From a virus (Duplodnaviria > Caudoviricetes): a DNA stretch of 64,000 nucleotides. Both the position numbers and the translations under genes were made by a program. Numbering within the stretch: the stretch's first letter is position 1; each line of letters opens with the position of its first letter. Below the pieces are notes generated by a model. The model ran no database searches. It was not told where the DNA came from and saw only the letters and a list, made by a program, of their open reading frames with translations. The DNA lies in the IMG/VR virus record IMGVR_UViG_3300025316_001101, one strand, 5' to 3'. Shown piece after piece: positions 17,396 through 52,212 of this stretch.

Positions 17396-18502
17396 CTAGC
17401 TATTGAAAAGACCTTGGTTGCGATCCAAAACTTCTTGGATTTGCCGCAAAGCAACTGTAGCTGCATCGGGATTAATGATGCATTTATCCAAACTGCCATA
17501 ATGGTGCTCAAGACATTCTAAAAGCAGTTGTTTAATTGCATCTTCGTCGGGTGTGTATGGAATAGGCGACGACTCTCGATTATACAAAACTTCCAATTCA
17601 CGCTCCTTCTCCGTGGCCCACTTCATAATGTCATCTTCGGTCACTTCACCACGACGAATGGCCTTGAGATGTTCTCGATTGAGTCGTAAATCAACATCAC
17701 CGGTAGACATAATCTGACCAACTTCGTCTAGCAAACGAACCAAATGATAAGCAAACTTCGTATCAAATTTCTGAGTTTTGACTCGTTCGGCACGTTTAGA
17801 GCCTTCCACCATCTGCTGGTAAAGACTGTGATATTCAGCCAACTCCTCGCCGGTCAAAACACGCAATTCAGAGTCTCCTGTTCTATGACCACCTAAAGCA
17901 CGAAACTCAACTTCAGCTTGAACATCAGTCAGCTTCATCTCATGGGAAATACCATGTTCCTTTTCCCAAGCACGAACCTCATCCAAACCAACATGGCTCT
18001 TGGTCTTGATTTTCCCCATTTGCGCAAATGCATACCCTCGAAAAGTATGCCACACCTTCTTGCTGAGAAAAATCTTGCGACGATCACGAACCATCGTACC
18101 AATTTGCGTTGTGTGTAGAATGCAATCTTGCGGCACATAGAGACTATCAACCATATTTGGATTTCCCCCCATAACCAACTGGAAATATTTTATGATTGAA
18201 TAGATTTGCAAATCGTAATTGCGACCTTTGCCACCCATTTCATCCGGGCAGTCGATGTGGTGCTGTTGAAATTGTTCAAACCGCTTTTTCTGCGTTCCGA
18301 AGCCAAAAATTTCCCCGGCCAAATGCGGGAACACCATACTTTTTGGGGGTACACACCAGCCATAAATATCCATATCAGACGTATCACTAGATACACCGTA
18401 GGCAACCGAACCCATAATCACTTCAAAGTGAACATTATCCGCTAAAAAAGTAGGCGGTCTGATCAACCCCTTATCTTCTAATTTTTTCACTACGCTTGGC
18501 AT
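17396..18502 (-). CDS. pol-beta-type nucleotidyltransferase (Nuc-transf/RlaP-like)
   Basis: GSVAYG..SD.D, NPN, HL.RL motifs. Confidence 0.85.
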   Translation of the reverse strand: MPSVVKKLEDKGLIRPPTFLADNVHFEVIMGSVAYGVSSDTSDMDIYGWCVPPKSMVFPHLAGEIFGFGTQKKRFEQFQQHHIDCPDEMGGKGRNYDLQIYSIIKYFQLVMGGNPNMVDSLYVPQDCILHTTQIGTMVRDRRKIFLSKKVWHTFRGYAFAQMGKIKTKSHVGLDEVRAWEKEHGISHEMKLTDVQAEVEFRALGGHRTGDSELRVLTGEELAEYHSLYQQMVEGSKRAERVKTQKFDTKFAYHLVRLLDEVGQIMSTGDVDLRLNREHLKAIRRGEVTEDDIMKWATEKERELEVLYNRESSPIPYTPDEDAIKQLLLECLEHHYGSLDKCIINPDAATVALRQIQEVLDRNQGLFNS

Positions 18503-40785: not shown

Positions 40786-41265
40786 TTACGGCAACATTGT
40801 AATATTTAATGTTGTTTCTTCACCTTTTGCTGGTTCCGGTTCTTTCTTATCTTCTTCAACACGAACCAATCGCCACGGAAATATCCATCTCCATAATTTC
40901 CTCAATCGCATACTCAACGGCAAACTTTCAGGACCAGCAACGCCTTTCATTACCAACCACACCAAAAACAATATAACAGAAATCAAAATGAAGCTTATAC
41001 AAGCCGCAAAGAATTTGCCCACTTCCATCTTGAGCCCCGGCATAGGCTGCCACAACAGTTGTTCCCAATTCTGACCAGTGGAAGTAAGAGTAAAACTAAC
41101 AAACGGCATAATCAAATTTTCAGAAATTGATTTTGCCACATTATTCAATGCAGCACCGAGAATAAAGGCCACAATGAAATCAACCATTTGGCCTTTGAAT
41201 ACAAGTTGTTTATACTCTTTGATCTCTTTTTCAAAATCTTCTACGCTGATAAAACCCTTAGCCAT
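40786..41265 (-). CDS. mscL: large-conductance mechanosensitive channel-like protein
   Basis: EYKQLVFKGQMVDFIVAFILGAAL..VAKSI.ENLIMP, ...GKFFAACISFILI; start ATG 41265. Confidence 0.75.
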   Translation of the reverse strand: MAKGFISVEDFEKEIKEYKQLVFKGQMVDFIVAFILGAALNNVAKSISENLIMPFVSFTLTSTGQNWEQLLWQPMPGLKMEVGKFFAACISFILISVILFLVWLVMKGVAGPESLPLSMRLRKLWRWIFPWRLVRVEEDKKEPEPAKGEETTLNITMLP

Positions 41266-41266
41266 A

Positions 41267-41479
41267 CTAACATCCCCTAACTCCGACTCCTCCGCCTCTT
41301 TTATATGATAGTCTACCATTGCTAGAAGCTCGTCGATAACAACCTGTTTTTGGTGGTTTTGGGGGTGGCGTTGGACAATTCTTACCACAGCCACAACCGC
41401 AACCACCACATTGATTATCTGGCTTGTATTGACCGTGTGACATTCCAAGCCCCTTCCCCGTCACTGATGTTGCACTCAT
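41267..41479 (-). CDS. small Cys/Gly-rich protein
   Basis: CGGCGCGCG. Confidence 0.4.
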   Translation of the reverse strand: MSATSVTGKGLGMSHGQYKPDNQCGGCGCGCGKNCPTPPPKPPKTGCYRRASSNGRLSYKRGGGVGVRGC

Positions 41480-41519
41480 ATATACCTCCTACAGTATATA
41501 TGAATTGTTATCCTCAAAG

Positions 41520-41747
41520 CTAACCCCCTCCGTATGGCGTCCCATCCGGGTTCATCAGTTGCACCGGATAGATATTAGCTTTCAACTCCTTGACTTCTCC
41601 CAAAACTACACCCTCAGCACGAATGTAACCGCCAGGGCAAAGACTGGTAAGTTCATTTTCCAAAAGAGCCTTGATCCGTTCTACTTCGACCGGATTGGTG
41701 GGCACCAATGTAAAACTTATTCTAAGATATTTTGCATTCGAGTCCAT
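41520..41747 (-). CDS. hypothetical protein
   Basis: SD GGAG before ATG 41747; upstream extension overlaps ncRNA. Confidence 0.5.
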   Translation of the reverse strand: MDSNAKYLRISFTLVPTNPVEVERIKALLENELTSLCPGGYIRAEGVVLGEVKELKANIYPVQLMNPDGTPYGGG

Positions 41748-41762
41748 GTAATTCTCCAATAA

Positions 41763-41997
41763 AAAGTCCTCGGCCGACAAGAAGCGTAGAGACGCCATTC
41801 CCTTTCGGGAAGTTATAGCCTTCACGCACGGACCCTTTCAGGTTACCGCCGTTCGAAACGCAATTAGATCTCCCCTTCGAGAGATCACCGGATTCAGTCG
41901 AAACTTACCGGCTTGTGCTGTCGCTTGCAGGTCGCCCTGTTTTGCTACCTTAGGACCATCATTGATGTAGTCCCCACTACATTCGGCCGAGGACTTT
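41763..41997 (-). ncRNA. structured ncRNA A with 23S rRNA H69-H71-like segments
   Basis: 15-bp terminal stem AAAGTCCTCGGCCGA/TCGGCCGAGGACTTT, then TTATT; several internal hairpins; GGTCCTAAGGTAGC; TTGCAA-N16-TATATT promoter upstream. Confidence 0.7.
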
Positions 41998-42015
41998 GTA
42001 TAATATAGCAGATTG

Positions 42016-42450
42016 TCAACGTTTTGCAAGAGGAGATGATGCAATAGCAACGAATTCTTGCCCGAACATCGTATCTTCAAGGGTGTACCGATATCCTTTA
42101 GGCTTCACGTATCGATCAAGCATCGCTCGATACAATCGTACTCGACTCGGTTCCTTGGCCAAGAATTTGATTATCCTGGGATATACTTTGTCTACGTATT
42201 CTCCCACCGCATTTGCTACTGTAGCGAATACTGGAATTTCGTCCCCCGTACCCGTAATACCATGTGAAGAAAGCTCTTTCGGTTTCATCAGTGTAAAACT
42301 CACATCTGTGACGCCATCATGGTGATCGAAATCGATATCATATTCTTTCCGATTGATCTTAAAGCTTCCAGCCCAATGTCCACCACTTTTTATTTGCCAT
42401 TGAATCGGCAAAGGATTATCAAACAATTCTAAGAATAATGTGAAATTCAT
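42016..42450 (-). CDS. hypothetical protein, paralog of 26011-26523
   Basis: TGTGD..VFATV, EPSRVRLY. Confidence 0.65.
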   Translation of the reverse strand: MNFTLFLELFDNPLPIQWQIKSGGHWAGSFKINRKEYDIDFDHHDGVTDVSFTLMKPKELSSHGITGTGDEIPVFATVANAVGEYVDKVYPRIIKFLAKEPSRVRLYRAMLDRYVKPKGYRYTLEDTMFGQEFVAIASSPLAKR

Positions 42451-48288: not shown

Positions 48289-48362
48289 TAGGTCACGTGG
48301 GAATCGAACCCACATTTACACTTTTAGAGAGTGTTGCTCTGAGCCAATTGAACTAGTGACCC
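48289..48362 (-). tRNA. amber suppressor tRNA (anticodon CTA)
   Basis: ACACT-CTCTAAA-AGTGT, intact D/T arms, G1.U72, A73. Confidence 0.88.
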
Positions 48363-50212: not shown

Positions 50213-50340
50213 GTGAATTACCCCGCCCCTAAAGAGGGCGGGGCTTCCGTTCCAATCAGCAGCCCACTCAAAGCGGGTCTTATGCCAAGACAAACGGCTC
50301 TCCCTGTATTCCAACAGGGGTTTATACCTTCATGTGAATA
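50213..50340 (-). ncRNA. putative TnpB omega/reRNA scaffold
   Basis: structured 3' region from tnpB end to the TCAC boundary; 5' end unknown. Confidence 0.6.
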
Positions 50341-51461
50341 TTAGTTGCTGCGTTTTCATCCCTATCGTGATTAGTGAAGCAGTTCCAACAAGTCCAAGTC
50401 CTATCAGTAAGTTCCAAGTCCTTGTTCTGCCAACCACATACGGAGCATAATTGCGAACTTGGATACCATTTATCCACTTGTCGCAACTCACGACCATACC
50501 ACTCGGCTTTGTATTTTAACTTTTGGAAGAACGAGGAGAAGCAAGCATCGGCTTGCTTCCTGTGATACACCTTCTCCCTCCATCGCTCAATTTTACGAAC
50601 CTCTGGGTCTGCGTTCCTCAACATATCACTTACACAAAGAGTTTCAACGACAATGACTTGGTTCTCGTCAATTATTTTTCTACTTACTTTGTGTTGAAAA
50701 TCCTCACGAATGTTGTGAATGTGCTGCTCCAACTTGTTTAATTTAAGGTATGCTTTCGCTCTACCTTTGCTGTCTTTCTGTGTTCTATTCTTTGCTTTCG
50801 TCAAGAACTTCAATCTGTTTCTATATTTTGTTTTTGGTAGTGGGTTCTCATACTTTGTTCCATCGCTGCCCACTATTCCATGAACATTCATGTCCAATCC
50901 AATAGTCTTATCAGTAGTTGGAAGTGGAGTCATTACCTTGTTGGCTGTAATGCTCACGAAGTATTGTCCTGCTTTATTCTTGGAAATGGTGGCAAACTCA
51001 ATCTCGCCTTCAAGTGGTCGGTGGAGGATGATGGGGATGCCTTGCTTGAACTTAGGAATGCTCAACTTACCATCAATGACTTTGATATTCTGTAATACCT
51101 TGAATGATTGTTTGCCGTGTTTTTTCTTGAAACGAGGGAAGCCACATTTACCTTTATGTTTGCCTTGTGCTTTTAATTTAACCTTACGGAAGAAGTTGTC
51201 ATATCCATTTTGTAGTGCTTTGGCTGAGTATTGTAATGCTTGACTTCCTGCTTCCTTCAACCAGTCGTATGTTTTCTTTAACTCTGGGATAGATGTAGCA
51301 TTGTCATAGTAGTTCAATGATTTGTTCTCACCTTTATAAGCATTGATGCGTTGTTCAAGGAAATGGTTATACAAAAACCTCACACAACCAAAATGTTTGG
51401 CGAGTAGAACTTGTTGTTCCTCGGTGGGCATCAACCTATATTTGTAAGAAATTAAGGTCAT
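50322..51461 (-). CDS. tnpB: RNA-guided endonuclease TnpB
   Basis: YKYRLMPT..FG..RF.YN HTH, RuvC GLD / VVE / DRD, C4 Zn finger. Confidence 0.93.
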   Translation of the reverse strand: MTLISYKYRLMPTEEQQVLLAKHFGCVRFLYNHFLEQRINAYKGENKSLNYYDNATSIPELKKTYDWLKEAGSQALQYSAKALQNGYDNFFRKVKLKAQGKHKGKCGFPRFKKKHGKQSFKVLQNIKVIDGKLSIPKFKQGIPIILHRPLEGEIEFATISKNKAGQYFVSITANKVMTPLPTTDKTIGLDMNVHGIVGSDGTKYENPLPKTKYRNRLKFLTKAKNRTQKDSKGRAKAYLKLNKLEQHIHNIREDFQHKVSRKIIDENQVIVVETLCVSDMLRNADPEVRKIERWREKVYHRKQADACFSSFFQKLKYKAEWYGRELRQVDKWYPSSQLCSVCGWQNKDLELTDRTWTCWNCFTNHDRDENAATNIHMKV

Positions 51462-51911: not shown

Positions 51912-52212
51912 TTTCGGCCCGACAAGGATGAATGCATGATGTTTTCTCAGGCTCTACCGGCATCGACCAGTGTGTTGTTACACCAAAGGGCGACTATCCG
52001 ATGTGGTCGGCTTCCCAGCATCATCCTCATTCTAGAAATGAGGGAGAGGCTGCACACCCACTCTTTGAATGATGGCTACTTCTAGGCCAACATCCTGGTT
52101 GTCTTAGCCTTTTGCAAAGCCCTTACTTCCCACTAAAACACCAAACAACTGCAAACGCAGATGAGACGAACTTCACTTCTGTTATGTAGTCCCACTCGCA
52201 TTCGAGCCGAAA
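51912..52212 (-). ncRNA. structured ncRNA B containing a 23S rRNA GTPase-associated-centre (H42-H44) mimic
   Basis: terminal stem TTTCGGCTCGA/TCGGGCCGAAA; ACCAGGATGTTGGCCTAGAAGTAGCCATCATTCAAAGAGT-[76 nt]-GTGTAACAACACACTGGT. Confidence 0.8.

Follow-up and report, generated by a model that had tools for sequence, protein, structure and literature searches.

Why a huge tailed phage from a lake should encode a structured RNA containing pieces of 23S ribosomal RNA (rRNA) is the question raised by positions 41763 to 41997, minus strand, of the DNA examined here. The window, that is, the whole 64,000-nucleotide (nt) stretch analyzed, corresponds to the reverse strand of the final 64 kb of the 259-kb IMG/VR record IMGVR_UViG_3300025316_001101 (Caudoviricetes; G000 below), whose CheckV completeness is ~50%. 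A preliminary description had viewed the RNA, here called E1, as a free-standing mimic or decoy in which segments of 23S helices 68 to 71 (H68-H71) stood in shuffled order within a closing stem. Y RNAs are understood as partners of the protein Ro60, and the inner module of a Y RNA sets what Ro60 is tethered to. Our analysis leads us to regard E1 as, probably, a phage Y RNA in which a Ro60-bound handle carries a ~165-nt permuted miniature of the domain IV core (helices 67-71) of 23S rRNA. The likeness to H68-H71 thus proved real, and mimic or decoy is still the most plausible class of role; what did not hold is that the RNA is free-standing and scrambled.

41763..41997, minus strand: E1 RNA, 235 nt, with a perfect 15-base-pair (bp) terminal stem and a strongly stable fold.

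Read on the minus strand (41997..41763), the first 15 nt of E1 pair perfectly with the last 15, and its minimum free energy (MFE) of -95 kcal/mol gave z = -5.2 against 200 dinucleotide shuffles. RNA positions cited below equal 41998 minus the window coordinate. All seven words singled out in the preliminary description are present in E1 as exact matches to E. coli rrlH at the 23S places it had named. The longest, GGTCCTAAGGTAGC, is identical to 23S 1921-1934 over 14 nt; the others are CGACCTGCA (1958), GGTAAGTT (1949), AACGGCGG (1900), CTATAAC (1914), GAATGGCGT (1968), and CTTGTCGG (1942), and two words beyond that list, AATGATGG (1977) and CCGGTAA (1894), match as well. Exact 7-14-mers of E. 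coli 23S 1890-1990 cover 71 of the 235 nt, a value reached by none of 5000 dinucleotide shuffles (mean 9.3, maximum 54). Along the whole 23S rRNA, 1890-1990 was the top-scoring 100-nt window for E1 matches, and the antisense strand scored at background.

A lone 14-mer match to 23S is not rare, ~2.8 being expected per strand in the 259-kb record, so the weight rests on the clustering of the words and, above all, on their conservation in a family. Several words carry little by themselves: GGTAAGTTTCGAC and GAATGGCGT each stand close to chance level, and relatives do not conserve them at those places, and GGUAAGUUUCGAC (in the loop of hairpin 86-111) and GAAUGGCGU (198-206) are found at their places in E1 only, each near chance. 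The Rfam large-subunit rRNA (LSU) model (RF02541) did not report E1, even at E <= 10; the order of the segments is permuted, and a colinear match to that covariance model was not found. Elsewhere in the phage, further 11-13-mers matching either strand of 23S are coding sequence at chance frequency, and among them there was neither a second RNA of the H69 type nor an antisense partner.

The ends of E1 identify it with a known kind of RNA. The covariance model R2 had as its sole input six Y RNA units that lie beside the phage Ro60 gene, downstream of it. On the 64-kb window, E1 was the top match of R2 (32.3 bits, E 2.5e-6), with a 165-nt insert standing where the short array units have their loop. 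The R2 alignment of E1 spans stem 1, GAAUG, stem 2 (GGGGAC/GUCUCU), CUACAUCA, and CUUGUCGG. The consensus of the YrlA family (5' cggCgaAUGC..CUAc; 3' cUuGucGccg) likewise matches both ends of E1 (5' CGGCCGAAUGUAGUGGGGACUACAU, 3' CUUCUUGUCGGCCG). E1 did not reach the Rfam gathering score for YrlA (69 bits); the phage's own short Y unit scored 25.4 bits. By these alignments, the ends of E1 are predicted to form the conserved handle of a Y RNA, made of the following elements.

41983..41997, minus strand: handle stem 1, 5' strand AAAGUCCUCGGCCGA; its last three nt are the conserved CGA of the Y RNA motif CGAAUG (R2 alignment, YrlA consensus).
41970..41977 (RNA 21-28), minus strand: handle stem 2, 5' strand GUGGGGAC, pairing with GUCUCUAC.
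41786..41793 (RNA 205-212), minus strand: handle stem 2, 3' strand GUCUCUAC (fold, R2 alignment, covariation).
41778..41785, minus strand: 3' internal-loop strand of the handle, GCUUCUUG (YrlA consensus aAaAcUuGucGccg; R2 alignment).
41763..41777, minus strand: handle stem 1, 3' strand UCGGCCGAGGACUUU (fold, R2 alignment, family covariation).

Together with the next UCGG, GCUUCUUG gives the conserved Y RNA CUUGUCG motif. In the R2 alignment, which is fitted to the model, the handle pairs were 92% paired with two-sided changes in 14 of 15, a result that none of 500 shuffles reached and for which slid controls were low. Across the family of relatives described below, 9 of 10 pairs of stem 1 covary. 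The equivalent of stem 2 covaries in relatives as well (GUUGGGAU/AUCUCAAC, GGUGAGGAU/AUCUUCACC, UGAACGAUCUA/UAGAUUGUUCA), with two-sided changes in all five pairs; a local hairpin (16-33) of the E1 MFE fold was dropped in favor of this long-range stem. R2 also recognized the handle of the family members in L116, L120, L118, L143, L129, and L145. The closing stem therefore reads not as a mere clamp but as the Ro60-binding handle of Y RNAs in a phage that encodes Ro60, and TTCTTGTCGG, previously listed as an rRNA segment, belongs by the R2 alignment and the YrlA consensus to this handle, as does CTTGTCGG.

The handle motifs nevertheless coincide with 23S words flanking H71 (41763-41785, 41983-41985): CUUGUCGG equals 1942-1949 and CGAAUG equals 1967-1972, and stem 1 (UCGG../..CCGA) resembles the H71 stem together with its 5' flank, by chance or by a deeper relation. 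The identity of TTCTTGTCGG with 23S 1942-1949 may be a coincidence.

Copies of E1 in six other metagenome contigs, found by identity look-ups of its neighbors, were 100% identical, so no covariation could be obtained from these strain-level copies, and the proteins neighboring E1, used as anchors, led to no relatives. Distant relatives were found by other routes. Alignment of Ro60 homologues was used to gather 80 Ro60-bearing IMG/VR loci. A BLAST search of E1 against 50 Ro60-bearing virus records gave one relative, in G018, and a one-mismatch search for the 14-mer gave another, in G044. Two DNA patterns searched in IMG/VR were unproductive: GGTCCTAAGGTAGC-gap-CGACCTGCA found nothing, and the two matches to GATGGTCCTAAGGTAGC were both chance matches inside coding sequence. 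A family pattern was then drawn from three RNAs (AUGY, 8-11 nt, UACAU, 2-14 nt, UCCUAAGGUAGC), which forces only 12 nt of rRNA, and it matched 4 IMG/VR records and 27 metagenome contigs. The metagenome matches in L119/L144, L124, L132, L133, and L135 had no convincing handle and were excluded as probable chance. A profile made from the 5' cores, R1, found further members in G030 and G021 with 1-3 changes in the 12-mer, from which it follows that the pattern-found set is biased; R1 also matched G020 (20.9 bits) and G022 (17.4 bits), by score only.

The family so assembled comprises at least 19 RNAs, in phage transfer RNA (tRNA) arrays and short metagenome contigs. Most often a member is found between tRNA genes, a few bases away from them, and next to YrlA-like matches. 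Rfam searches at E <= 0.1 on 11 family loci returned the tRNAs and the YrlA-like neighbors and gave no LSU match on the members. Their 5' cores align as the handle, UUACAU, the block AACUAUAAYGGUCCUAAGGUAGCGAUG, a hairpin, and CUAGCGAUGGC. The first block is 23S 1912-1936, kept almost letter for letter; according to the structure line of the Rfam LSU model, it comprises the H69 loop, the H69 3' strand, and the unpaired strand leading to H70. Over the 11 nt upstream of the 12-mer, which the pattern does not force, members are on average identical to 23S 1912-1922 at 7.9 of 11 positions (72%). Several relatives are more 23S-like than E1 itself, with exact matches of 16-29 nt: L134 has 29 contiguous nt identical to 23S 1909-1937, and the likeness of L127 continues through GAAAUUCCU. 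Conservation among homologs thus holds for the 1912-1936 block and fails for GGTAAGTTTCGAC and GAATGGCGT, as stated above. RNAalifold on the family 5' cores (A2) paired GGGAUU, the 5' strand of stem 2, with GGUCCU of the 23S-like block; this pairing could be an alternative closed conformer, and both strands are invariant, so covariation is uninformative about it.

The inner module of E1 can be followed from 5' to 3' through these elements.

41960..41969, minus strand: UACAUCAAUG, the Y RNA-conserved UACAU followed by the 3' half of the H69 loop in degenerate form (alignments, 23S identity).
41954..41959 (RNA 39-44), minus strand: H69-like stem, 3' strand AUGGUC, corresponding to 23S 1919-1924 ACGGUC; its best long-range partner is GGCUAU, 6 bp.
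41944..41953, minus strand: junction strand CUAAGGUAGC, identical to 23S 1925-1934 between H69 and H70.
41928..41939, minus strand: H71-like hairpin CAGG-GCGA-CCUG, at the same position in relatives, with covarying stems.
41917..41927, minus strand: CAAGCGACAGC; the family consensus here, CUAGCGAUGGC, resembles 23S 1962-1973 CUGCACGAAUGG.
41887..41912, minus strand: hairpin GCCGG...CCGGU with a 16-nt loop holding GGUAAGUUUCGAC; the stem resembles the H68 base UGCCGG/CCGGUA (folds).
41867..41886, minus strand: 8-bp hairpin GAUCUCUC-GAAG-GGGAGAUC, present in all folds, a variable insert with no 23S counterpart.
41828..41853, minus strand: AACG and hairpin GCGG-UA-ACCU-GAAA-GGGU-CCGU, holding AACGGCGG-TAAC and resembling 23S 1900-1914 (end of H68, H69 5' strand).
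41815..41820 (RNA 178-183), minus strand: H69-like stem, 5' strand GGCUAU, then AAC, corresponding to 23S 1906-1914 GGCCGUAAC.
41798..41811, minus strand: hairpin UUCCC-GAAA-GGGAA, separating the H69-like 5' strand from stem 2 and matched in position by a hairpin in relatives.

Where the loop copy of E1 is degenerate, most relatives carry AACUAUAA, the whole H69 loop sequence. The junction strand CUAAGGUAGC is invariant in the pattern-found relatives and has 1-3 changes in the R1 members. E1 thus holds the 1925-1934 junction strand together with the H69 3' strand, and it has a helix at the place homologous to H71. This helix covaries, being CAGG/CCUG in E1 and GUCCC/GGGAC, CUCGG/CCGAG, or GGCGGG/CCCGCC in others, and in L121 the stem after GGUAGC is GUCGG/CCGAC, which is the E. 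coli H71 stem. Its loop, GCGA or GUGA, is not that of H71. The word CGACCTGCA consists of the H71-like loop, the 3' strand, and CA; its place is homologous to 23S 1958-1966, in a different register.

Elements of H68 and of the H69 5' strand come downstream. The subgroup B relatives keep the H68 base UGCCGG/CCGGUA, with which L115, L140, and L141 carry CCCGGUAA..GGCGGC, and words similar to AACGGCGG-TAAC occur in L115, L141, L134, and L145. In at least nine members, words of 23S 1893-1914 come after the 1912-1936 block, and many members carry the end of H68 and the H69 5' strand near their 3' end. Among these words are CGGCCGUAAC (L120), CCGUAAC (L129, a compact member of 167 nt), GGCCGUAA (L143), GCCGUAAC (L116), and, in E1, AACGGCGG and GGCUAUAAC. 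In 23S these words precede the first block, whereas here they follow it, which indicates a circular permutation with its break in the H69 loop. What had been described as shuffled order is therefore a core colinear with 23S 1912-1972, followed by the end of H68 and the H69 5' strand. CTATAAC, listed previously as a segment of its own, is present and is better read as part of GGCUAUAAC, the counterpart of GGCCGUAAC (1906-1914), which pairs with AUGGUC.

The 1919-1924 equivalent has its best long-range partners in 6-bp helices, with AAC following the partner strand as it does in 23S: GGCUAU-AAC in E1, GGCCGU-AAC in L120, GACCGU-AAC in L129, and GGCCGU-AAAC in L143; in L116 the helix has 5 bp. 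Compared with the 23S stem, G1910-C1920 is A-U in E1 and C1909-G1921 is U-G, which gives one compensatory pair. Subgroups with shorter stems keep only the three basal H69 pairs, and these covary, being GGC/GUC (as in 23S), GAC/GUC (L128), GAU/AUC (L125, L118, L140), or GGC/GCC (G030). Re-formation of the H69 stem with compensatory changes is thus supported in relatives, while in E1 alone the helix is near chance and competes with the pairings of the MFE fold. As judged from these comparisons, the E1 module is a circularly permuted H67-H71 junction that appears to be opened in the H69 loop, at the point where the handle sits.

Ro60 itself is encoded in the same record (L006, 3092-4801) as a 569-residue protein in which TROVE and vWA domains are found and whose Ro60 homologues number in the thousands. 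The gene lies ~88 kb from E1, not adjacent to it, and is followed by short units, one of which has a weak match to Rfam YrlA. Among the records with a family member, Ro60 is encoded in all that are complete enough to judge (G000, G018, G044, G030, G021, and G052, the last with E 4e-80); G051, a 13% fragment, stands outside this count. R2 found six more Y-like RNAs in the Ro60 locus of G052 (L116, 8155-12699) and three more in L115 (1894-2428); their insert lengths vary, and they measure 70-144 nt in all.

The window holds a sister RNA, E2, with another piece of 23S.

51963-52106 (within 51912-52212), minus strand: E2 RNA, with an Rfam LSU match to 1085-1152, the GTPase-associated centre.

E2 scored 30.6 bits in this LSU match, which contains an 82-nt insert, and its ends (CGGCUCGAAUGCGAGUGGGACUACAU ... 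CCUUGUCGGGCCG) bear the same Y RNA motifs as those of E1, with no clear partner for stem 2; in the R2 search of the window, E2 was not reported at E <= 10. In E2 (51918-51928) an 11-mer, UCCUUGUCGGG, equals 23S 1940-1950.

These features suggest the following model. The paired 5' and 3' ends of E1 would be the handle bound by the phage's own Ro60, placed where the H69 loop would close. From the handle, the module would run through the H69 loop and the H69 3' strand to the invariant junction CUAAGGUAGC, the H71-like hairpin, and the return strand, and on through the H68-like elements to the H69 5' strand (GGCUAU-AAC), which would pair back with AUGGUC. The module would in this way show H69 and its junction off the ribosome, and E1 may act as bait, tether, or decoy for whatever recognizes them, either tethering Ro60, together with a nuclease partner (PNPase, for example) if there is one, to some host or phage factor able to recognize this part of 23S, or titrating that factor. 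The sister RNAs of the same phage would present the GTPase-centre copy (E2) and tRNA-like modules. Since the module keeps the H69 stem and junction, and not the H71 loop or, in E1, the UUCCU of H70, its partner more likely reads H69 and the junction than being a toxin directed at H70. The preliminary description had drawn a link to MazF through H70; UUCCU is absent from E1 at the homologous place, which makes a decoy for MazF unlikely here.

Around E1, the genes are orphans: the RNA is flanked by a DUF6934 gene (42016-42450) and a 75-codon open reading frame (ORF; 41520-41747). A sigma-70-like site, a consensus match only, lies 5 nt upstream of E1 and reaches into the DUF6934 gene at its 3' end, and a U-run comes after the 3' arm.

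42002..42029, minus strand: promoter-like site TTGCAA, 16 nt, TG-TATATT (consensus scan, 9 of 12 matches, extended -10 TG).

Rfam at E <= 10 on 41500-42300 gave two chance-level matches only, with both LSU and YrlA unreported, and Rfam and ARAGORN found no tRNA or YrlA match within 41763-41997. Lake and freshwater metagenomes are the source of the other contigs that carry this sequence; the sequencing runs listed for it, from those metagenomes, are DNA only, with no RNA run among them. In the identical contigs, a cysteine-rich 70-codon ORF (CGGCGCGCGKNC...) stands directly upstream of an MscL gene (PF01741; window 40786-41479, minus strand), both just downstream of E1. The window contains 28-30 tRNA genes, all on the minus strand, among them one with anticodon CUA, an amber suppressor (48289-48362, minus strand). 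A TnpB/Cas12f-like ORF (OrfB_IS605 and Cas12f1-like TNB domain) lies inside the tRNA island (50322-51461, minus strand), and the phage also encodes an RlaP-family protein, a nucleotidyltransferase of an RNA repair pathway, and a complete S-adenosylmethionine synthetase (17396-18502 and 241-1524, both minus strand).

Several observations weigh against reading E1 as a Ro60-bound Y RNA with a permuted 23S module. Its sequenced copies being identical, the helices specific to E1 rest on distant relatives. The unconstrained MFE fold pairs the 23S block otherwise (AUGG/CCGU, UCCU/AGGG) and, at -95.0 kcal/mol, is 3.7 kcal/mol better than the homology-guided fold forced with stems 1 and 2 and the H69-like helix (-91.3 kcal/mol). 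That helix is not significant in E1 by itself, with a chance of ~1 in 3 by our estimate (6 bp, G-U allowed, ~130 nt), and so draws its support from the family; the family set is in turn biased by the search pattern, and its R1 members vary at 1-3 positions of the otherwise invariant block. The Ro60 gene is not beside E1, and neither the YrlA nor the LSU model of Rfam reports E1 even at E <= 10. Finally, with the H69 loop split and the H71 loop replaced, the best-known contact surfaces of the ribosome are not reproduced intact.

Four other explanations were weighed against this evidence. The preliminary description had E1 as a free-standing rRNA decoy without Ro60, the terminal stem serving only to stabilize a module that soaks up an rRNA-directed toxin or factor. 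The 23S block is indeed real and conserved, and E1 has a promoter-like site of its own far from Ro60, but the ends carry specific conserved Y RNA motifs rather than just any stem, every evaluable record with a family member has Ro60, and UUCCU, the MazF-linked element of H70, is missing at its homologous place; we consider such a decoy unlikely. To about the same degree we doubt that the conserved 23S-identical strand, from the H69 loop to GGUAGCGA, acts by base pairing, as a sponge for an RNA complementary to this part of 23S or by pairing with its usual contacts, and involves no structural mimicry. That the block is predicted to be largely unpaired in many members, and that what is conserved is sequence, would suit this idea. 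However, no complementary element was found in the phage, its other 11-13-mers matching 23S on either strand being coding sequence at chance frequency, and part of the block enters an H69-like helix that has the support of covariation.

A cis-acting role, as leader or attenuator for the 75-codon gene that lies downstream, with the long stem and U-run as terminator, is consistent with UUUUUAUU after the 3' arm and with GGAG-ATG 16 nt downstream. The relatives, though, lie between tRNA genes and share no conserved downstream gene, and the neighbors of E1 are orphans, which leaves this function very improbable. Least credible of all is that the resemblance to 23S arose by chance or composition in an unrelated structured RNA: taken singly, three of the seven words stand near chance, and the Rfam LSU model is silent at this locus, but the absence of any shuffle among 5000 that reaches the observed match, the relatives with exact matches of 16-29 nt, and the 72% identity at unforced positions refute it already at the level of the family.

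Y RNAs bind Ro60 through their terminal helix, and their inner part either links Ro60 to other proteins or controls access to its cavity (PMC4201824). YrlA mimics tRNA, and its tRNA-like domain is accepted by tRNA enzymes (PMC4201824). The Ro60 of a Thermus phage binds Y-like RNAs of the phage by way of their CGAA motif and forms an assembly with host PNPase (PMC12135203). With the YrlA-type Y RNAs (RF02553; PMC4201824; Yrl1 and Yrl2 of phage phiLo, PMC12135203), E1 shares the handle with CGAAUG at the 5' end, CUUGUCG at the 3' end, and two helices, its location among tRNA genes of a Ro60-encoding genome, and the modular build in which a handle carries an inner module imitating a translation RNA. 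It departs from them in that the module is 165 nt and resembles 23S domain IV rather than tRNA, in its length (235 nt versus 80-130 nt for characterized Y RNAs; PMC4201824), and in lying ~88 kb from Ro60, the classic arrangement being adjacent.

With the 23S domain IV core itself (H67, the base of H68, H69, H70/H71; E. coli 1830-1975), E1 has in common the 1921-1934 strand, a putative H69-like stem, an H71-like stem, and the return strand; in its relatives 1909-1937 is retained without change, as is the H68 base UGCCGG/CCGGUA. Unlike the ribosomal core, E1 is permuted at the H69 loop, lacks the distal part of H68, has extra hairpins, has the H71 loop replaced by GCGA (a GNRA-type tetraloop), and has GAAAUUCCUU (1935-1944) reduced to AAAA. 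E2 is, like E1, a phage copy of a functional centre of 23S in the tRNA island with the same end motifs; the LSU model finds E2, which copies H42-44 colinearly with 23S, and does not find the permuted E1. Permuted RNA genes, such as two-piece or permuted transfer-messenger RNA (tmRNA; RF04321) and permuted tRNA genes, resemble E1 in keeping the parent helices with the ends moved into a loop. Permuted tmRNAs and tRNAs are, however, working versions of the parent RNA, whereas E1 is a fragment set on the protein-binding handle of another RNA.

Our literature search turned up phage Ro60 and tRNA-like modules of Y RNAs, and nothing on rRNA-like Y RNA modules; in the literature searched, tRNA look-alikes were the only bacterial Y RNA modules, and no published description was found of a ribosome look-alike tied to an RNA-surveillance protein. 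As far as we have searched, the 23S-like module of E1 is of a new type.

A broader reading, which we offer only tentatively, is that large phages run a Ro60 system with exchangeable baits, in which one handle carries a miniature tRNA, the 23S GTPase centre (E2), or the H69 junction (E1). If this is so, the Ro60 particle would present parts of the ribosome off the ribosome and thereby capture or sense host factors, which could be defense toxins that cut translation RNAs, enzymes that modify rRNA or split ribosomes, or proteins that bind the subunit interface. Guarding or taking over translation in this manner would be new for a virus. A family of Y RNAs with a permuted 23S H69-junction module would widen the mimicry of tRNA by these RNAs to mimicry of ribosome parts and would give experimental handles on the roles of Ro60 in bacteria and phages. 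As a natural, minimal, circularly permuted rRNA junction, E1 may fold on its own, and its family would mark H69 and its junction as something that phages need to imitate.

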